From an uncultured bacterium (GTDB lineage Bacteria > Patescibacteriota > Minisyncoccia > Phycocordibacterales > DATDWN01), in contig CAIOTC010000022.1 in the NCBI GenBank assembly GCA_903861205.1, positions 25 to 64,024 on the forward strand: DNA of 64,000 bases, in the 5' to 3' direction. Positions 3,461-38,520 of this stretch are shown here, in pieces. The stretch's first letter is position 1, and each line of letters begins with the position of its first letter. The translations under genes and the position numbers were made by a program. A model generated the notes under the pieces. That model searched no databases and was not told where the DNA came from. It was given only the letters and a program-made list of their open reading frames with translations.

Positions 3461-4580
3461 CTTCCAAGGCTTTCAGCCCTGGAAGAGTTTCGTTGACCAG
3501 GAAATCGAGCATCGCGCCACCACCGGTGGAGATGAAAGAAAATTTTTCTTCCAGTCCGAGTTTTTTAATTGACGCGAGTGTATCTCCCCCACCGACAATC
3601 GACTCCGCGCCACTTGTCACGATAAGTTCAGCCAACTGTTCCGTTTTATCGGCAAAACCATTTTCGTAATTTCCAAGCGGTCCGTTCCAGACAACAGTTT
3701 TGCTGCCGTCCAAAATATTTTTTAACTGTGTAATTGTTTCCGTTCCGGCGTCGGCCACAGTTTCGTCCGGCGCGATTTCATTTTGTTTTTTGAAAGAAAC
3801 ACTACCGTCATCTTTTGTCACGGTAACATCAGCCGGAAAAATTAATTTCGGATTTTTCAACATTTCCGAAATTCCAAAGTCACCTTCAGAAATTAATGAC
3901 TTCCCCACTTCAAAACCTTTGGCCTTGTAAATATCGGTGGCCAACGCTCCGCCGACAAAAACCGCGTCTGCCTTTTCCAAATATTTTTTGATGAGCGGCA
4001 TTTTTGTTTCGAACTTTGCTCCGCCTAAAATAAAAACAAAAGGATGAACAGGACTGAAAACTTTTGAGAGGTTTTCGATTTCTTGTCGCATTAAAAGTCC
4101 ACCATAACTTGGCAAAAATTCCGGCACGCCGACAATCGAAGCATGTTTGCGATGGCAAACGGAAAAAGCATCGTTAACGAAAATGTCCGCCATCTGTGAA
4201 AGTTTTTTGGCAAAGTCCGGATCGTTTTCTTTTTCGCCCGGATTGATCCGCAAATTTTCAAACATTAAAACGCCTTTGTCTTCCAGTTTCAAAAGTTTTT
4301 CAATCGCTTCCGGCGTGAAAAAGTCGCCACAAAAATCAACCGGCAGAAAACCGTTCAGATAATCGTGCATCGGCAAAAGCGATGAGGATTCTTTTCCTTC
4401 GCAATGAGCGATAATAATTACTTTCGCTTCCTTGGCTCGTAAAAAATCAATCGTCTGGAGTGATCTCTCCATGCGATACGGATCGGCCACCTTGCCGTCC
4501 ACAATGGGAACATTTAAATCAAGACGAAGCAATACTCTAACTCCCTTTAAGCTTGGAACTTCATCGATGTAATAGATCAT
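3447..4580 (-). CDS. pgk: Phosphoglycerate kinase
   Basis: 377 aa with the PGK N-terminal motif RVLLRLDLNVP and C-terminal GGGDT...STGGGA. Confidence 0.9.
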   Translation of the reverse strand: MIYYIDEVPSLKGVRVLLRLDLNVPIVDGKVADPYRMERSLQTIDFLRAKEAKVIIIAHCEGKESSSLLPMHDYLNGFLPVDFCGDFFTPEAIEKLLKLEDKGVLMFENLRINPGEKENDPDFAKKLSQMADIFVNDAFSVCHRKHASIVGVPEFLPSYGGLLMRQEIENLSKVFSPVHPFVFILGGAKFETKMPLIKKYLEKADAVFVGGALATDIYKAKGFEVGKSLISEGDFGISEMLKNPKLIFPADVTVTKDDGSVSFKKQNEIAPDETVADAGTETITQLKNILDGSKTVVWNGPLGNYENGFADKTEQLAELIVTSGAESIVGGGDTLASIKKLGLEEKFSFISTGGGAMLDFLVNETLPGLKALEVESL

Positions 4581-5916: not shown

Positions 5917-7369
5917 ACTGCACCTCCTGCCAGGAAATAGTTTGGTATTGGTCAGTCGTCAGCGGGAATGACGGCGGAGGGGCGTATAGCAGGTTGGCGT
6001 CGTAAATAATATTTCTGGTTTGGTAGCCGGTGCCGTCCGTATAGGCAAAACCGTACCTCGAATAACTGCCGATCATCCCATACAAAGTGATCGTGTCGCG
6101 CACGTATTGCGCCGTACAATCGCTTTCGTAATAAAATCTTCCCACCCGCCCATTTTGCGAAATAAGCGCGGCATCGATGCGCAAGTCGTCAGCGCTGTAA
6201 AGACCGTTATTGATATTTTCCTGGGCGATAAGGCCGATGGAATCCTGCCCGTCGTAGTTGGTGTAAAGCAAATCGTCATTTATCGTTATACTCGTCCTCT
6301 GCGAGGGATTGTCTGGAAATTTCCCAGCCACAACGGTCACTCTGGCAGTGTTTATCTGCCCGTCAATCCAAACATTATCCTCCACAAAAATAATTCCGTT
6401 CCCCGGCATTGGGTAATTGGAAACGAAAGTTTGCGTTTTGACACTCCACGTTCCCCAATCGCTCTGGTTGCCGTTATTGCCGCAATGATCCGGCAGAGGT
6501 TGGAGCTGAGTTACTTTGTACAAATCAAAAGTGTCGTTCGTTTTTAAAACCAGATGATAGCCGAGCACGCCGGAACTGGAAATATATTTGCCACCGGCTT
6601 GAGCTTTGCTTTTCATATCAGCCATGTCTGTGGTGATGCCGGCAAAGTCGACAACCGGCACGGGAAACTGCCTGCCTGCCTCAAAAACATCCGGCCGATT
6701 TGGAACGGGATTTCCGGGAGATTCCAGTGGACGATAATCAGTGTTTACGCCACTGCCCGGAGGTGGATTGACGTGAGTGTGAACGCCAAATTCCTGTCCG
6801 CCGGTATGGTCAGGGTCGTCGAATTTGCTCACTCCGCTCGAGACAACATTGTGCGCAATACCGTCAAAGCGAATTCCGCCATTTGACATAATCGGACCAA
6901 AAACTTCCGTGCCTTCGCCAAAACGCATGTCGTCGTTGGCCACCACGGCAAATTTGGCCAGCGACGGCTTGGCCAGCTGAACGAGAATGGAGCGAGAAAC
7001 AGTCGCGTCAGCCAAAATTTTGCCGGTTGATTTGACTTTGACCATCGTCCAACCGGTTGGCGGCGCGGTAATATTGAGAGTGAAAGTACCGATCTTTGTG
7101 CCGTCTTTGTCGAAAAAATCGTGAACGTACGGACCGGCGTGTCCGGTACCGTCTTGGAAATCGGTCGAAGCGTGCGCCAGATGCCATCTATAATAATCAA
7201 CTCCGGCTTCGGCGATTTGCAAAGCTTGTTCACGCTCAACAGCCAACCGCGAAGCTTTGATGTTCACTCCGGCCCAGCTGACCAAAGCGCCGATGATAAC
7301 CACGGAAATGGTACCAAAGACGAGAGCTTGGACGAGAATGGAACCAGATTGTAATGATTTTTTGAACAT
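5915..7369 (-). CDS. PilX-N-like type IV pilus-associated protein (minor pilin / pilus tip-like)
   Basis: 484 aa. N-terminal hydrophobic anchor followed by REQALQIAEAGVDYYRW (PilX_N-like). It is co-directional with the pilin genes. Confidence 0.55.
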   Translation of the reverse strand: MFKKSLQSGSILVQALVFGTISVVIIGALVSWAGVNIKASRLAVEREQALQIAEAGVDYYRWHLAHASTDFQDGTGHAGPYVHDFFDKDGTKIGTFTLNITAPPTGWTMVKVKSTGKILADATVSRSILVQLAKPSLAKFAVVANDDMRFGEGTEVFGPIMSNGGIRFDGIAHNVVSSGVSKFDDPDHTGGQEFGVHTHVNPPPGSGVNTDYRPLESPGNPVPNRPDVFEAGRQFPVPVVDFAGITTDMADMKSKAQAGGKYISSSGVLGYHLVLKTNDTFDLYKVTQLQPLPDHCGNNGNQSDWGTWSVKTQTFVSNYPMPGNGIIFVEDNVWIDGQINTARVTVVAGKFPDNPSQRTSITINDDLLYTNYDGQDSIGLIAQENINNGLYSADDLRIDAALISQNGRVGRFYYESDCTAQYVRDTITLYGMIGSYSRYGFAYTDGTGYQTRNIIYDANLLYAPPPSFPLTTDQYQTISWQEVQ

Positions 7370-8213: not shown

Positions 8214-10046
8214 CTAGTTCGTCTGCATTGTCACGCTGGTTGACTGCCAATCCCCCGAAATCGTCACCGGAACATCCTGGTTCGCGTAGCCGGTTTTGGA
8301 GAGGTGCATGGTGTAAGAGCCGGAAGCAAGGGCCGAAAAAGAAACTTGGCCGGGCGGAGTGCAGGAAAGAGTGTAGGTGAAAGAAATGTTGGAAATGTTC
8401 GGTGCCGTGATAGTGGAAGTTGTATCCAAAAACAATTTGTACCGCAAAAATCTGTTGCCGTTGTTGGTCGAACTGATATTTTTGTTGGCGTTGGTGTAAT
8501 ACGTACCCGCCGTGCCATCCGGCCCGGTGAAATTCCAGGTGGCGCCGTCGTTGTTTGTGGCAATTTGCAAGCGCACGGTCGATCCGACCGGCTCGTCAGT
8601 CGGCGTCCAATCAATTCCCTGGAAATTGCTTTGCGCTCCGGTGTCAAATGACGACGAAATCAAACTGCCGCTTGAAACATAATCTCCGAAAACTTTTTTG
8701 AGAGTGACATCTCCGACCGGACTGGCCGTTTCCATGTTTCCATCGGATGAAAAATATTTCGTTTTGTCCGTCGATGTCGCCTGTCCCCCTCCGCCGGACC
8801 AATCCGTTTGTCCGAGAAATCCTTGACCGGTAATTTTAATGGAATCGTACCCGGCCTTGGTCAAATCGACGGAAACGCCGGAAAGCGGAAGCCCCGTCAC
8901 ACCATCTTTGACCGTCACCAGAAGAGTTTTTGGATTTTTGGGCGCGACAATGAGCGAAACGGCTTGGGTACTGTTCGGAGCCAGAGTTACCGGCGAGAGC
9001 GGATTAAGACCGATGAAATCATAGGCCGTATCGATGTTTGTAATAGTGTAAGTGTCCCATTCCATGCCGGAGAGAGTTAGCAAGCCACTTCCATTTGTCA
9101 CTTTGTTCTGATTATATTTCGGCACGACAGGATTAAGGCCGACATTTTTGCTGCTCAAAAGGGTAAAATCGATTGTTCCTACATTCGCGCAAGTGTCGGA
9201 AAGAGATGAAAAAGAAAAAGTGGCCAAGCGATCAATGGCGAAGCTGACCTGGGTAACCTGGCCTCGCAAAACTGTGGCATGCGGTTTGGTCGGATGAGGA
9301 TTGTTTTGAACGGCCTGATATGTTTTGTCCGTCGAGTAACCGGATTTGGTCACGGTGATTTCGTAAGCATTCCCACCGGGCGGAACGTCAACGATTTGGA
9401 GCATGCCGGCGGAATTGGTCACGTCGTCAACGACAATGTGCGGAGAAATCAGATTGTTCTCGATGTGCACGGCCGCGTCCGGCAGGACCACGCCGTTGGC
9501 GTCAAAAACTTTGACGAACAGCGCGCCATTCGACGAGGAATTTTCCAAACTTTTCGGAGCGACGCGGGTGGTCACAATCATCGGATTAAAATTTTTGCAG
9601 GTGGCACAGGAAATTTCGATTTCCACCGTTTTAAAATCGGCCGGCGCGGTATCGTTTGGCGTGCCACCGAGCGTGCCGTCGAACGGATCATCCACATTGC
9701 GCACAGTGGTCATGACAGAAAAAGTTTCCGCACCGCGATTCAAACTCTGAATGTGCGTCAATGTGCCGGAAGGAATACCGCCGGAAATACCGACGCTGGC
9801 ATACGGCATATTGCGAACAATTTCTAACTGCTCGTTGACCAAATCGATGGCGTCGATTTTAGCCCGACTAACAGAAACCACATTGAAAATGGAAGTGTAG
9901 GCGTTGTAAACCGCCACGACGATAACAGTAAAAACAGCAACACCGACGATAAGCTCCACCAGAGTAAAACCTAGGGAAAATTTTTTGTTGTGGTGATTGT
10001 TAAGTTTTCTTGACATAAAATTTTCAATTTCCAATAAATGAATCAA
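8214..10046 (-). CDS. Large prepilin-type N-terminal domain protein (pilin-like, 610 aa)
   Basis: Leader ...KKFSLG|FTLVELIVGVAVF (prepilin motif) followed by a long T/S/G-rich beta-type extracellular region. The real start may be the internal Met at about 10016. Confidence 0.7.
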   Translation of the reverse strand: MIHLLEIENFMSRKLNNHHNKKFSLGFTLVELIVGVAVFTVIVVAVYNAYTSIFNVVSVSRAKIDAIDLVNEQLEIVRNMPYASVGISGGIPSGTLTHIQSLNRGAETFSVMTTVRNVDDPFDGTLGGTPNDTAPADFKTVEIEISCATCKNFNPMIVTTRVAPKSLENSSSNGALFVKVFDANGVVLPDAAVHIENNLISPHIVVDDVTNSAGMLQIVDVPPGGNAYEITVTKSGYSTDKTYQAVQNNPHPTKPHATVLRGQVTQVSFAIDRLATFSFSSLSDTCANVGTIDFTLLSSKNVGLNPVVPKYNQNKVTNGSGLLTLSGMEWDTYTITNIDTAYDFIGLNPLSPVTLAPNSTQAVSLIVAPKNPKTLLVTVKDGVTGLPLSGVSVDLTKAGYDSIKITGQGFLGQTDWSGGGGQATSTDKTKYFSSDGNMETASPVGDVTLKKVFGDYVSSGSLISSSFDTGAQSNFQGIDWTPTDEPVGSTVRLQIATNNDGATWNFTGPDGTAGTYYTNANKNISSTNNGNRFLRYKLFLDTTSTITAPNISNISFTYTLSCTPPGQVSFSALASGSYTMHLSKTGYANQDVPVTISGDWQSTSVTMQTN

Positions 10047-30140: not shown

Positions 30141-30212
30141 TGCTCCCGGCAGGACTCGAACCTACAATGACTGATTCGAAGTCAGTTATGATATCCATTT
30201 CACCACGGGAGC
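30141..30212 (-). tRNA. tRNA-Arg (anticodon UCG)
   Basis: Reverse complement GCTCCCG..ACTGA-CTTCGAA-TCAGT..TAGGTTCGAGTCCTG..CGGGAGC-A. Confidence 0.8.
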
Positions 30213-30260
30213 AATGAGATAAATATACAACAAAAGAGCAATTAATGCTATTATTGAGAC

Positions 30261-34659: not shown

Positions 34660-35157
34660 TTATTTGTTATTATATTTCTCTTTCATTTCCATCGCACGTT
34701 CCATAATTCTGTCAGCAGCGTCGCTCCACTTTATATATTGTTTGAAATCCTGAGGATTAATTAATTTGATTTCTGTAATATCTCCGTCCGGATCAGAAAC
34801 AAAATCGCCATATGGTTCAACTATGCAAAAAGAATTTGCATGAAATATTGTTTTACCACTTTCAAACGTTAGAATCTGATATCCGATGTATTCTTGATGC
34901 AAAACTTTCATATTCGATTCTTCTTTTACCTCCCGTGTGGTAGCTTCTTCGAGTGTCTCGCCTTTTTCAATAGCGCCACCCGGAAATCCCCACGTATCGT
35001 TTTTATCACGAACAATAACCAACTTGTCCCCATAAAAACAATGGCCACTGACACCATTTAAAACAATCCCTTTAAGTTCAATCTCAGGATTACCTTCTTT
35101 ATACATAATATCAACTTTTTTTCCTTCCTTTGTGACAGTTTGAGATTTTATTTCCAT
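34660..35157 (-). CDS. NUDIX hydrolase
   Basis: Nudix box GFPGGAIEKGETLEEATTREVKEESN. The gap to the SAH gene is 5 nt. Confidence 0.75.
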   Translation of the reverse strand: MEIKSQTVTKEGKKVDIMYKEGNPEIELKGIVLNGVSGHCFYGDKLVIVRDKNDTWGFPGGAIEKGETLEEATTREVKEESNMKVLHQEYIGYQILTFESGKTIFHANSFCIVEPYGDFVSDPDGDITEIKLINPQDFKQYIKWSDAADRIMERAMEMKEKYNNK

Positions 35158-35703
35158 GGTTTTAGTATAACAAATTTATGTAAACAAAAAGGGCTACCTC
35201 CGATATCATCGAAAGTAGCCCGTAACATAAAGCGCGGACAGAACGCCGGCGCTATACGCTATGATCTCGCGTCGATATCGACGCCAGGCCCAGCGACAGA
35301 AACGAACGAACTGTCGCCAGAGGGAAGTCGCGGTCCTTCTCAACACGCGTCCCGTCCAGCCCATGTATGCATGGTGCTGGCGAACGATCATCGAGAAGCC
35401 GAACCCCATGACCCAAATTACAAGGGCCATGAAAAAGAGCGTATTGAAAGCCTGCATTTCCGTTCTCCTTTTTTTTTCCCACTTGCCTCGGCGAATGGAA
35501 ATTTTGCCATTTTGCCGGGAAGTCCGTTTGGTGTCCTTGTGGACACCACCAGTTTGAACGGGAAGGGGAAGGCGGATGCCTTTCCGTACCTCCCTCATGG
35601 AAATTACGGTCTTTGCTTTTTTCATAAAGAACTCCTGCCAAAGAAAATTTTTTAAACTTGCTTTGGTAGAAGCCCGATCCGGTGTTTTGGATCGGGCAAA
35701 GGA

Positions 35704-36366
35704 TTACTTCTGATGATTGCGACGGGTTTTGAAAGCCATCGCATAGCGGATCTGGAGTTGAGGCGCGCCTTGTGGCATGCGCTGAAGCCAAAATTCCAAA
35801 TCGCCGTACCGTCCGCCTTTGAGGGTAACCGAGGCAAAGGGTTTGTGTTCCCATTTGGCTTCGCCGAACTGGTATGCGCCGTAGCCACCACCGAGCTTCC
35901 ATCGCCTGAACTCGTACTCCACCTTGGACCTCTCCAGAACATGCTGGATGCGTCCGGATTTGTTGAGTGGCAAGTAGGGGAAGTAGCAGGTCTCGCTCGC
36001 AATCTTGGGCGTCACTTTCCAGATAACCAGTGTCCAAGGAATAAAGTATGTTGCATTCCCTGAAGCTGTGCCGATTGCCTGTTCGATGTAGCCTTCCTCG
36101 ATAACGACGAACCGCTTAGAAGCGTGCAGGATTGCACCGCCGCCGATGCCAATCTCCCGGTAGTTGTTCTTACCGAAGTCGATGTAAAGCACATCGGGGT
36201 AGATCCAGCGGCCGCGGGTCTGATAGACCTCGGCATAGTGGTAGGTCGCTGTGTTCCTTGTGCCCATGCGAGCCATCACCGAAGTTTCGATCTCCTGCGC
36301 GTTGAGCGAAGAAAGACCGGCGAATAAGGCAAACATCACTATAATCGTTCTCATAATTCCTCTCAA
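35704..36366 (-). CDS. Exported beta-rich protein with a Gram-negative-style signal peptide, inside a GC-rich island
   Basis: MRTIIVMFALFAGLSSLNAQE signal peptide, then an aromatic-rich alternating pattern. GC is far above the window average. Confidence 0.4.
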   Translation of the reverse strand: MRGIMRTIIVMFALFAGLSSLNAQEIETSVMARMGTRNTATYHYAEVYQTRGRWIYPDVLYIDFGKNNYREIGIGGGAILHASKRFVVIEEGYIEQAIGTASGNATYFIPWTLVIWKVTPKIASETCYFPYLPLNKSGRIQHVLERSKVEYEFRRWKLGGGYGAYQFGEAKWEHKPFASVTLKGGRYGDLEFWLQRMPQGAPQLQIRYAMAFKTRRNHQK

Positions 36367-37001
36367 AGAACTTGAATTTTACTCCTGTGTAACGTTGTTT
36401 CTGTACTTTTCCAGTTCTCTATTATACACCCATTACAATCACTTGTCAAGTATTTTCGGGGAGAATTTTTAGCTTATTTTGAGCCCAAATTAGCCTTTTG
36501 TGATTGCCCCCACCGCAGAAAACTTTTGCAAAATTTTCTCTGGTAGAAGTCCCTGCTTAGCAGGGACTGGCTCGTCGCCTCGGCGGATTTTTCTCGGATT
36601 CTTCCAGCTTAATTCGATCTTGTGCCGCCAGAGTCGCTCCGACTGACACCGACAAACTAAAGCCGTGTTTTTTGAGAAACTCGACACAGCCGTCGTAGTT
36701 GCCATTTGAAGCTATCAAGTATGCTTTGGCAACCATGAGCGGCACACGGCCGGGATTTCTTTGAACTCTCAATGCTAAAGAAAGTTTCTGATGAGACATT
36801 GGATCTCCTTTCGCCGTTTTCCGCCCGGCAGGCGTATTTTAAAGAACTTTGGGATTTCTCCCTTCAAAACATTCTCACTGAAAATGTTTTGAAGGGAGCT
36901 CAATCGAAGACCGATTGAGCGACTCGTTTTTAGCAACTGGTGAGCATCATCCAGTATCAACACGAATTTAAAGTCCTCATGTCTCCCGGACCGACCTCCT
37001 T

Positions 37002-37289
37002 TCAGCTGGTCAGGCTGTCACGCCTCTTCCGTCGAGGAATGAAGAATTCAACCACCATGAATGCCGCAAAAACTGCGCAGCACCCGCCGAGCATCCAAGC
37101 TGACTTGGCAATCGGCGCCGGCAAATGGTTGAATCTGGCCGCGTGGAAGAAAATCCCCGCCGTGGCCGCCTGAAGCACGAACATGAAAAAGCAGAGAATC
37201 TTCTTGAACACGTTCGTCTCCATCACCCCGATGACCGCCAAGATAAATTCAACGATGTAATACAACACCCACTCAAAGAACGATCCCAT
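37002..37289 (-). CDS. Small polytopic membrane protein (95 aa) preceded by a long structured leader
   Basis: Two or three TM helices. RBS gggagga lies 5 nt upstream and sits inside a hairpin. Confidence 0.45.
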   Translation of the reverse strand: MGSFFEWVLYYIVEFILAVIGVMETNVFKKILCFFMFVLQAATAGIFFHAARFNHLPAPIAKSAWMLGGCCAVFAAFMVVEFFIPRRKRRDSLTS

Positions 37290-37880
37290 AAATTCCTCCC
37301 GTTTGGGAAATGAAGGTGGGATTTTTCATTTCTCAAACGGAAGCCCGAGAAAATTCTCGGGCGGTTGTGCGTCTTTCCGACGCGGTGAATTGCAAAAGAA
37401 CTGTGTGCAGTGGGAGTCTTGGTTTGGCAACCTTGACTCCCTGGGTGCCAACCCACTCTCGCTCTTGTTGGTCCGCATTCTCCCGCCCGAATCACTCGGT
37501 ACCAGGTGCGGTATCTTCCTATCTGAACTACTCTTATAACCTCGGCGAAAGCCGGGCGAGCAGACAGAATTGCTAGGTTGATAGCTGAGCGATCAAGCCC
37601 CTGCCGTAATGTATCTCTGCACAGATACACGACTAATTTCAAAATTTTGGGAGCGAAACTGGCCCGCCGGCCTCGTGTGGGGTGGCACGGGGCATACGCC
37701 CGCACCACGAAAATCCCACGGCGGTGGGTGGTCTTGGTAGACCGCCACACGATGTTTCGCTCCCACTTAGGGGTCCCTCGCAACTCAAATTCGTGCGAAC
37801 CGGACCGCCTGAGCGGAAGCAAAACTGTCAGACGTTTAAAACATTTCAATATTTGATTCTGGGATAAGCATACACCCATC
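37290..37880 (-). ncRNA. Candidate structured 5' leader or non-coding RNA. It is ORF-poor and GC-rich. It contains a pseudoknot-capable segment and a hairpin that sequesters the RBS. The class is not identified.
   Basis: On the minus strand just 5' of the start codon: ccgtttgagaaatgaa-aaatcccacc-ttcatttcccaaacgg, whose 3' arm continues into GGGAGGA-attt-ATG. At plus 37405-37460, GGGAGTC..TTGGCA..GACTCCC..TGCCAA are interleaved complementary pairs. There is long-range pairing GGGAGCGAAAC...GUUUCGCUCCC around 37640-37760. Confidence 0.35.
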
Positions 37881-38149
37881 CATATTTTTTGTCAAGAACT
37901 TTTGACACTTTATACAAAATACTTTTTCTGACACAAAAAATATGGCCTAATATATGGCCATTTTTGAACGCAAAACAAAATGAGATTAATTTTGATCACT
38001 GACAGAACATGTTTTTCAAGAAAAGTTTTTGTGAAAAATTTTCTAAATTTTATCAAAAAATAGTGTTTTTGCGAAAAAACACTATTTTTTACTACAATAT
38101 GGCTAGAAATATGATTTTATTGTAAATTTGATACGAAAATGACAAAAAC

Positions 38150-38520
38150 ACTTGACATTTTAATTCGAGTTTGCTAAGCTTGTTCGCGGAGGTGATCAAT
38201 GGAGGACTAGAGAAGCGGAGTGCTGCTTCCTAGTGAAATCCATTGTCACTAGGAAGCAGCATTTTGCGGATCAAAATCCGTCACCTCTGTAGTTAACAAT
38301 TAAAGACAGTCGGCCCACCTCGTTCGCCTTAACTTCGTTTCGATTTAGGTGGTGCCCGAAAAAAGGTGCGAAATGCAAGATTGACGCTGGAGAAACAGCC
38401 GGCCGGAATCCCGGTCGACCAGTGACTCCTAATTTGTTCGCAAGCTGGGTCGTAGGGCGTTCAACGTTCCACGTATTCAGCAAAAAAGGCCCCGCTCATC
38501 GGGGCCTTTCTCAATTTCAA
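38150..38520 (+). ncRNA. Candidate small RNA locus: a promoter-like TTGACA-17-TAAGCT, a 16 bp perfect hairpin, a 3-codon uORF with a perfect Shine-Dalgarno sequence, and a terminal hairpin
   Basis: cacttgacattttaattcgagtttgctaagctt; ggaggtgatcaATGgaggacTAG; tgctgcttcctagtga-N13-tcactaggaagcagca. It ends at the hairpin ggccccgctcatcggggcc. Confidence 0.25.
38482..38510 (-). terminator. Rho-independent terminator of the TrmB-like gene (reads on the minus strand as ggccccgatgagcggggcc + ttttttg)
   Basis: GC-rich stem followed by a T-run on the minus strand. Confidence 0.65.

Follow-up and report, generated by a model that had tools for sequence, protein, structure and literature searches.

A structured leader RNA in a mosaic array of small orphan genes from Patescibacteria, with junction modules that carry a boxA-like core

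The closest described counterparts of the locus reported here are the nut sites of ribosomal RNA operons (rrn) and phage lambda, the cassette arrays of integrons, ribozyme-rich bacterial loci, the OLE RNA with its protein OapA, and the translational platforms of riboswitches and RNA thermometers. For the boxA part of nut sites the consensus GYTCTTTAANA has been published, and boxA elements within 50 nucleotides (nt) of start codons control translation and Rho termination, as in the case of suhB (PMC5725501). Here we analyse a 64,000-nt stretch of contig CAIOTC010000022.1 (henceforth the window) and, within it, positions 37290-37880, which a preliminary description made from the sequence had called a long structured leader upstream of a membrane protein of 95 amino acids (aa). 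The host of this locus is a Patescibacteria genome related to Zambryskibacteria. Judged by its sequence and predicted fold, the region is a non-coding, highly structured cis leader RNA of no known family, and we give an even chance to the proposal that it acts in cis in the maturation and expression control of its transcript, with boxA-like cores and junction modules as its working parts. On the same proposal, the ~570 nt form the untranslated 5' leader of the first transcription unit in a cassette-like, hypervariable array that consists of small orphan open reading frames (ORFs) and lies between a trmB-like gene and xth. Throughout, related loci carry numbers of the form L002 or L022, and leader coordinates refer to the minus strand. 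The features of the leader, in the order of transcription, are as follows.

37867..37895, minus strand: sigma-70-type promoter TTGACA-17-TATGCT (10/12 consensus matches), kept in all related loci
37754..37825, minus strand: 5' hairpin P1, present in the minimum-free-energy (MFE) fold and the only leader part common to every related locus
37648..37765, minus strand: domain D2, closed by a long-range helix of 37754-37765 with 37648-37659
37606..37630, minus strand: hairpin GUAUCU-GUGCAG-AGAUAC with an invariant GUGCAG loop (inverted repeat, covariation)
37456..37605, minus strand: central variable domain, ~150 nt here and ~55 nt in copy 2 of L002
37412..37454, minus strand: double hairpin with the pseudoknot segments, i.e., small hairpin GGGU-UGGC-ACCC and hairpin GGGAGUC..GACUCCC
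37403..37411, minus strand: invariant tail ACUGCACAC, whose CUGCAC is complementary to the GUGCAG loop 200 nt upstream
37395..37401, minus strand: GUUCUUU core copy 1, boxA-like, the junction core of the array
37343..37362, minus strand: hairpin A, GCCCGAGAA-UU-UUCUCGGGC, a terminator-like stem with no U-tract
37294..37342, minus strand: hairpin B, whose 3' arm carries GGGAG(GA) (MFE fold, inverted repeat, covariation)
37275..37289, minus strand: start-codon region, with UGGGAU (37283-37288) complementary to the hairpin-B loop AUCCCA (37317-37322)
37275-37281, minus strand: GUUCUUU core copy 2, inside codons 4-5 of the 95-aa ORF
37002..37289, minus strand: 95-aa ORF with three hydrophobic segments, an orphan family (ORF call, protein searches)

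Transcription is predicted to start at ~37860. From 37290 to 37866 the GC content is ~0.50-0.55, compared with ~0.30 in the adjoining AT-rich control region, and the 587-nt stretch folds with an MFE of -249.7 kcal/mol against -189.2 +/- 7.2 kcal/mol for 100 dinucleotide shuffles (z = -8.44; 0 shuffles as good). With a promoter upstream and a fold this stable, the earlier call of a long, structured and untranslated leader holds. A 218-aa ORF that crosses the leader was rejected as coding: it starts upstream of the -10 box, has no Pfam match, is not kept in L022 or L002 and was never annotated as a gene in related contigs. The Rfam/Infernal scan that the preliminary description had proposed as a check found no family in 37290-37880, either at the gathering score or at E<=10, and a scan of nine related loci at E<=0.5 gave no match to the leader. 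Specifically, the Rfam scans of the region matched neither the OLE, GOLLD, ROOL and raiA covariance models nor any housekeeping RNA, the latter in agreement with what had been claimed, and the leader's own motifs (P1, the GUGCAG/kissing-hairpin element and hairpins A and B) had no match in Rfam, including RAGATH, pistol, hatchet, twister and twister-sister. Matches of the microRNA type lay in the AT-rich flanks and were discarded as noise, as was a RAGATH-22 match in L042 (26.9 bits, gathering score 120). A blastn search of the leader against phage and plasmid collections returned no match.

Leader homologues were gathered from contigs carrying relatives of the 95-aa ORF and from one metagenome scan with the pattern CCCAGGG-N-TCCCACTGCACAC, in which 4 of 18 matches were true loci. 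Given that in viral contigs and 185,579 GTDB genomes the same pattern gave chance matches only (in GC-rich coding DNA), the core leader element is rare. Homologous leaders were found in L001 and L003 (one strain, with one hairpin exchanged at a broken contig end), in L002 and L019 (~900 nt, including a 330-nt insertion), in L022 and L026 from Hainich groundwater (~69% identity over 390 nt), in L035 and in L042 (~1150 nt). Leader length among relatives thus ranges from ~480 to ~1150 nt, through the gain of whole modules. Two copies of the core RNA element are present in L002 and in L042, whereas L037, L038, L043 and L046, which have the same locus, lack it; their leaders are unrelated to that of the window beyond P1.

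Comparison of the homologous leaders (another check that had been proposed) revealed compensatory changes in most helices. In P1, whose apical part is divergent in the window, a nine-locus alignment (A6) has 22 pairs, 11 of them compensatory, with 96.4% of cells paired; 0 of 500 shuffles were as good, and slid controls reached 45-51% paired. A consensus fold of the window, L022 and L035 by RNAalifold comprises 147 pairs, of which 29 are compensatory. It selects the long-range helix of TGGGAGCGAAAC (37754-37765) with GTTTCGCTCCCA (37648-37659), including 3 compensatory pairs; this pairing, already seen in the preliminary description, is complementary at 12/12 bases with 94 nt between the arms. 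The same consensus supports covariation of the inner helix of D2 (37745-37752 with 37673-37680) and of its sub-hairpins, one of which is almost wholly rewritten between two lineages with pairing kept, as well as compensatory changes in the GGGAGUC/GACUCCC hairpin. The stem of the GUGCAG hairpin also covaries (AUCU/AGAU, AUGC/GCAU, AUGU/ACAU; 2 compensatory pairs in the consensus) around its constant loop, and in the central domain several helices carry compensatory changes between the window and L022. Because the long-range helix takes the 3' strand of P1, the two structures are mutually exclusive, and they may constitute a co-transcriptional switch.

The double hairpin, ~70-110 nt upstream of the hairpin that holds the Shine-Dalgarno (SD) sequence, had been described as an H-type pseudoknot. 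Its interleaved 1-2-1'-2' topology is present, but the first two segments had been listed in the wrong order: in sequence order they are TTGGCA (37446-37451), GGGAGTC (37435-37441), TGCCAA (37424-37429) and GACTCCC (37412-37418). The arrangement is best described as two adjacent hairpins whose apical loops are complementary (UGGC:GCCA). All six copies of the element have the small hairpin (U-A / C-G / U.G), and the loop-loop pairing is present in the window, L022 and copy 2 of L042; it is not found in copy 1 of L002 or copy 1 of L042. In copy 2 of L002 the loops read UGACG:CGUCA, i.e., two compensatory changes that give 8 base pairs (bp) and a pairing better for cognate than for non-cognate partners. 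The L002 and kissing-loop pairings were scored by explicit duplex calculation because MAFFT had misplaced the L002 hairpins and shifted the pseudoknot loop. A nested alternative, consisting of the small hairpin and an extended hairpin, fits 6/6 copies. HDV-like, pistol and twister folds were rejected by eye for this region, there being no P3/P4 and no model match. Every double hairpin ends in the invariant CCCACUGCACA and is preceded by a hairpin with the invariant GUGCAG loop. This hairpin and the CCCACUGCAC tail are found 1:1, also where the element is duplicated (L002 and L042), and loci without the element have neither; as loop and CUGCAC are both invariant, the evidence for their pairing is conservation and co-occurrence, not covariation.

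The distal part of the leader belongs to a repeated unit. Hairpins A and B form a two-hairpin module that ends in GGGAG-N-AAUCCCAAA-GUUCUUU and stands before most small ORFs of the window's array and of sister arrays. In L022, for instance, six copies of AAUCC-N-AAAGUUCUUU lie on the array strand, each before an ORF, with ~1 expected by chance; each copy follows a GC-rich hairpin A abutting a long hairpin B, at whose base CUYCY pairs with RGGAG. We folded 31 matches to the module pattern and aligned 19 distinct copies from nine arrays, across which hairpin B has 19 consensus pairs, 12 of them compensatory. Folding energies of the module (sense -28.1 vs antisense -22.1 kcal/mol; sense better in 25/31) and the number of G.U pairs (82 sense vs 25 antisense) both favour the sense strand, on which leaders also fold better in 5/6 cases; this advantage points to a function in the transcript. 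Hairpin A was considered and rejected as an intrinsic terminator since what comes after its GC-rich stem is UUCC and then hairpin B with its 5' arm, not a U run.

In the window the module adjoins the 95-aa ORF directly. The preliminary description had put GGGAGGA, as the SD sequence, in the 3' arm of a hairpin 5 nt before the start codon. The hairpin is there, with 19-nt arms (37296-37314 and 37325-37343) that are 89% complementary and a 3' arm ending in GGGAG, but GGGAGGA (37294-37300) is separated from the ATG (37287-37289) by 4 nt. In most copies of the module N-AAUCCC comes after GGGAG, so that a GGGA-GNRA-UCCC mini-hairpin is possible, and the true SD and start codon are reached only after another 20-60 nt. 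In the window and L002 the linker is GGAAUUUAUG, which is why GGGAGGA would serve as the SD there. The AUCCCA:UGGGAU pairing between the hairpin-B loop and the start-codon region is kept in L002 via a C-to-U wobble, making translational masking of the 95-aa ORF by hairpin B and its loop plausible. Of the expression platform once proposed, the burial of the SD in a stem and the complementarity of the loop to the start region are retained. However, given that the hairpin is a copy of a generic module whose GGGAG is usually not an SD, masking would be a by-product and not the work of a dedicated platform.

The second recurring component is the core. G(C/U)TCTTT occurs 2-9 times per array in sense and 0-2 times in antisense orientation; the density of GYTCTTT is 2.2 per kilobase (kb) in the window's array vs 0.2 per kb elsewhere (~11-fold enrichment). 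Cores lie 0-60 nt before start codons within the context consensus CCCAAA-GUUCUUU-nAAA, in which positions 9-11 are A-rich, and 7 of 60 match boxA GYTCTTTAANA at all 11 positions, a consensus that is gamma-proteobacterial; the rrn boxA of the host itself lies outside the window. The form GUUCUUUGAAAA is that of boxA in the ribosomal RNA spacers of Firmicutes and Mollicutes, and a literature search with this string gave mycoplasma-related papers. A core also follows the internal promoter of the array without a hairpin module, which fits a role in the expression of the gene downstream. Elsewhere in the window, UUGCUCUUUUGUUG is located at 30213-30245 on the minus strand, ~20 nt upstream of a tRNA gene (30141-30212). 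If this is a boxA-like element of a stable-RNA leader, as it may be, it would be relevant to whether the array cores are boxA sites.

Beyond the 95-aa ORF, the array continues as follows.

36841..36920, minus strand: next junction module, with hairpin A at 36898-36920 and hairpin B at 36858-36897
36851-36862, minus strand: mini-hairpin GGGA-GAAA-UCCC in that module
36841-36847, minus strand: GUUCUUU core of that module, a perfect GYTCTTTAANA match
35191..36840, minus strand: rest of the array (ORF calls, promoter/terminator scan)
36557-36799, minus strand: 80-aa ORF
36421-36449, minus strand: internal promoter TTGACA-17-TATAAT, a perfect consensus (12/12 matches)
35704-36366, minus strand: 220-aa ORF with a signal peptide
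35206-35625, minus strand: 139-aa ORF whose two halves match 60-aa and 80-aa genes at the distal end of other arrays
35191-35221, minus strand: terminator, end of the array

Comparison of arrays by blastn showed that homology blocks end 6-17 nt past the start of a core in both partners (at least 9 comparisons), and that other blocks begin at 0 or -14 relative to the core. L035 and L036 have the same hairpin A/B after a 63-aa ORF followed by a different next ORF, the same ORF stands behind different B hairpins in L022 and L035, and a counterpart of the 330-nt insertion of the L002 leader lies mid-array in L046-L049. Taken together, these observations mean that the arrays are mosaics built from a recurrent kind of unit: a core, then an ORF or a structured RNA, then hairpins A and B and GGGAG..AAUCCCAAA. 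The window's leader can then be read as P1 followed by one non-coding unit, one nearly empty unit and the unit of the 95-aa ORF. The leader precedes a 95-aa or 63-aa membrane ORF in the window, L002 and L022 and a 29-aa basic ORF in L042, and a 63-aa homologue stands mid-array without a leader in L036; as far as these loci indicate, the leader RNA is not tied to the membrane protein. The 95-aa protein itself belongs to no Pfam family, and a search of 5.8 billion protein clusters gave just four relatives (P0001-P0004), two of 95 aa (99% and 81% identical) and two of 63 aa that match its C-terminal two-thirds.

We searched for hammerhead ribozymes with an E-value Rfam scan of nine related loci (gathering score 48.5) and a regular expression for CUGAUGAG...CGAAAC. 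Type III hammerheads were found in L022 (5866-5919, minus strand; 38.2 bits, E = 1e-4) and in L035 (292-346, minus strand; 44.4 bits, E = 2e-6), both just below the gathering score, and the regular expression also located cores in L037 (~9100-9175, plus strand), L043 (~3960-4035, plus strand), L044 and L045. The in-array hammerheads (L022, L037 and L043-L045) lie on the array strand with a GUUCUUU core within ~8 nt downstream, in a slot that is elsewhere filled by hairpins A/B or by the leader's kissing-hairpin element. L035 is the exception: its hammerhead, on the opposite strand, lies upstream of the trmB genes, with no more than the core-like GAUCUUUGAAAA after it. Nothing hints more strongly at RNA processing at the junctions than the placement of hammerheads directly before cores in sister arrays. 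In the literature library that was searched, hammerheads were not connected with the Candidate Phyla Radiation (CPR) in any paper, and there was no report of ribozyme-rich loci in Patescibacteria.

One mechanism consistent with these results would be the following. The transcript would fold during its synthesis into a compact RNA made of P1 right after the promoter, a lineage-restricted element (D2, the GUGCAG-loop hairpin, the variable centre, the kissing hairpins and the CUGCAC tail) and one junction module (hairpin A, hairpin B, GGGAG and the GUUCUUU core). Junction modules would divide up the polycistronic RNA, each being a place for processing, stabilisation and restart. The cores might act like boxA and keep RNA polymerase elongating through a long untranslated, terminator-like stretch, the candidate target RNA of NusB-NusE being CCCAAAGUUCUUUAAAA. 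Finally, hairpin B and its loop would bury SD and AUG, such that the 95-aa ORF is translated only after refolding or processing.

Several observations weigh against this scheme. The window has no type III hammerhead (CUGAUGA and GAAA cores) by Rfam scan at E<=10 or regular expression, and its internal promoter makes part of the array independent of the leader. With only four sequence types of the leader element in public data besides that of the window, support for some helices comes from two effective sequences. Covariation is seen in P1 as well as in the long-range helix, of which the MFE fold chooses the former and the consensus fold the latter. The boxA reading depends on a 7-nt core with a 3' half of the consensus that is only A-rich, and boxA is not known to stand before every cistron elsewhere.

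Some of the same evidence can be read differently. The GUGCAG-loop/kissing-hairpin/CUGCAC-tail element, perhaps along with hairpins A/B, might be a new self-cleaving or nuclease-guiding RNA that cuts the polycistronic RNA just upstream of the core. Such an RNA, which we consider unlikely, would explain why the element holds the same position relative to the core as the hammerheads, why invariant unpaired nucleotides stand beside covarying stems, why GUGCAG loop and tail co-occur 1:1 even in duplicated copies, and why the central insert varies in length and looks dispensable; no known family matches, and the neighbourhood of known ribozymes has yielded new classes before (PMC6154101). However, the element has no identifiable cleavage site, its loop-tail pairing is invariant and so unproven, and 2 of 6 copies lack the kissing interaction. 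Most structured RNAs near ribozymes, such as the RAGATH candidates, are not known to be ribozymes themselves. The exchange of units leads to a second interpretation, again of low probability, in which hairpin modules and GTTCTTT are attC-like DNA sites of a tyrosine recombinase and the leader consists of non-coding cassettes. The mosaics do break at the core, hairpin A/B after the 63-aa ORF is shared by L035 and L036 with a different ORF next, the L002 leader insert recurs mid-array in L046-L049, and a Xer-like tyrosine recombinase is found at the distal array end in L043, L044 and L047 (not L046). The window's array, however, contains no recombinase and no integron integrase, and the sister-locus enzyme, which resembles XerC/D/A, scores 130 bits against a TIGR02249 cut-off of 265. 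The arms read (C)CGTTTG...CAAACGG(G) with GTTCTTT as the core, instead of the attC pattern RYYYAAC...GTTRRRY, and it is the sense (mRNA) strand that folds better and has more G.U pairs. Moreover, homologous recombination between the ~22-nt conserved junctions would yield the same mosaics. The two ideas may also be joined in an undescribed, ribozyme-punctuated and integron-like cassette system specific to Patescibacteria, in which the GUGCAG/kissing-hairpin element, hairpin A/B or both would be new classes of self-cleaving or processing-guiding RNA with the role that hammerheads have elsewhere; we regard this as unlikely.

Two further explanations concern the leader as a whole. According to the first, ligand binding by an aptamer in the leader switches between P1 and the long-range helix, or switches the SD hairpin, and so controls whether the membrane protein is translated. 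Two mutually exclusive helices that each covary, a sequestered SD and AUG, and invariant loop nucleotides would all be expected of a riboswitch, yet we think it very unlikely. No known aptamer matches, and among relatives with this locus some have the element in tandem duplicate while others lack it. Different genes stand downstream, the hairpin over the SD is a copy of a generic module, and leader length changes from ~480 to ~1150 nt by gain of whole modules. The preliminary suggestion of a dedicated riboswitch for a transporter-like protein is not supported: there is no Rfam aptamer at E<=10, the protein has no Pfam family, and leader and gene are not constantly paired. According to the second, the RNA is a stand-alone, trans-acting large non-coding RNA (ncRNA), e.g., an OLE-like ribonucleoprotein with an adjacent small membrane protein. 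This would suit an ornate RNA of ~500 nt that is GC-rich in an AT-rich setting and has a small membrane protein next to it, as oapA follows OLE RNA. Against it stand the lack of matches to the OLE, GOLLD, ROOL and raiA models, the lack of a terminator between RNA and ORF, a protein partner that is not constant and the very narrow distribution of the element, and we find it highly improbable. A cis-acting leader with junction modules thus remains the reading to which we give the even chance stated at the outset.

Around the orthologues of the upstream TrmB-family gene, which their sources label Zambryskibacteria or Patescibacteria, gene order is conserved: rpsO, trmB, 1-1.3 kb of non-coding DNA, small ORFs without Pfam families, and xth. 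Only some loci have the Xer-like tyrosine recombinase before xth, with its own promoter, between array and xth (L043 6484-7356, L044 6287-7147, L047 9587-10519); there is none in L046, whose TrmB protein is identical, and none in the window. Upstream of the leader lies a probable operator, which is perhaps bound by the adjacent TrmB-family regulator.

37890..37907, minus strand: palindrome TGTCA-N8-TGACA over the -35 hexamer, candidate operator (sequence reading), also in L002, L022, L035, L037, L038, L040, L042, L043, L046 and L047

Every related locus keeps this palindrome. Extra TGTCA/TGACA half-sites are scattered upstream of it (37930-38160), and L035 has two trmB paralogues. Between the trmB-like gene and the AT-rich promoter region we also observed a conserved element (window 38150-38290; L035 ~2810-2900, L037 ~6990-7070, L038 ~6890-6960), in which a long covarying hairpin (38212-38270) adjoins a conserved 25-nt tail. 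On the plus strand this tail holds a strong SD and a 3-codon mini-ORF, GGAGGUGAUCAAUGGAGGACUAG (M-E-D-stop; M-E-D in L037 and L038, M-F-D in L035), after which come the hairpin just mentioned and a U run; read on the minus strand, the tail is similar to the 3' end of 16S (GAUCACCUCC). With promoter-like sites on the plus strand at 38069-38115, the element may be a divergent leader-peptide or attenuator-like transcript.

Other observations concern the contents and stability of the arrays. The internal promoter at 36421-36449 drives the 220-aa signal-peptide protein, whose beta-rich, porin-like sequence has no family match; the host lineage is thought to be without an outer membrane, which makes such a protein odd there. 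One array cassette (L022 3135-3788, minus strand; L036 1227-1520, plus strand) encodes a 217-aa fusion of sigma-70 region 4 and the RNA polymerase alpha C-terminal domain (Pfam E-values 1.2e-9 and 1.3e-18), i.e., an unusual pairing of two promoter-/UP-element-binding modules. A second unclassified, hairpin-rich non-coding segment of ~230-330 nt (L002 181-520; L042 1575-1860; L046 9127-9358) is inserted in the L002 and L042 leaders, recurs mid-array in L046-L049 (69% identity) and has no Rfam match. In strain L001 (99.96% identical), most of the NUDIX gene (window 34660-35157) is gone and the sequence runs on into a GTP-binding-protein gene (junction at window 35095 / L001 2666); at the other end L001 breaks inside the leader, where hairpin GGUCU-ACCA-AGACC is swapped for GGGCC-GUAA-GGUCC. 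The locus is a strain-level hot spot where assemblies break. A prophage or inovirus origin of the array was ruled out by a PHROGs profile search of the array, which gave no match except one sigma-like regulator.

Patescibacteria (CPR) are uncultivated, have very small genomes, and their RNA-based regulation is poorly charted. This locus combines an operator-like palindrome, a universal 5' hairpin, unclassified RNA elements, covarying junctions with a boxA-like core, hammerheads in sister arrays, and strain-level shuffling of tiny membrane, secreted and basic proteins. Were the junctions processing or antitermination sites, they would illustrate by what means a set of probable surface or host-interaction proteins is expressed and varied in a minimal genome; were one of the motifs catalytic, a new ribozyme class would be seen in its natural context. 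For annotation, the locus is a warning that an SD-sequestering hairpin behind a big structure is insufficient for a riboswitch call.

Compared with described systems, the leader shares with riboswitch and RNA-thermometer platforms an SD in the 3' arm of a stem adjoining the start codon, but its stem is a repeated module whose GGGAG usually lies 20-60 nt from the real SD, and no aptamer was matched. As with OLE RNA and OapA, a large ornate RNA is directly upstream of a small multi-pass membrane protein; here, by contrast, no model matches, the protein is unrelated and not constant, and the RNA is seemingly co-transcribed as a leader. Ribozyme-rich bacterial loci (type III hammerhead, twister, RAGATH) resemble the array in having structured RNAs in one orientation between small ORFs of unknown function and, in some loci, a tyrosine recombinase nearby, a likeness extended by the type III hammerheads of the sister arrays; the window differs in lacking a hammerhead and in having motifs without an Rfam family match. 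Integron arrays are likewise runs of co-oriented small ORFs that share one main promoter; after each ORF come an individual hairpin and a common 7-nt core starting with GTT, at which exchange takes place, whereas here there is no IntI, the cores depart from the core-site consensus, the hairpins are more stable on the mRNA strand and an internal promoter is present. The rrn and lambda nut sites (boxB and boxA, bound by NusB-NusE) differ from the array in that its element precedes nearly every cistron, conserves only a 7-nt core and is flanked by a GGGAG-N-AAUCCCAAA that is not part of any boxA; what the two have in common is a hairpin followed by a short single-stranded G(U/C)UCUUU-A-rich element, found both in the leader and between cistrons.

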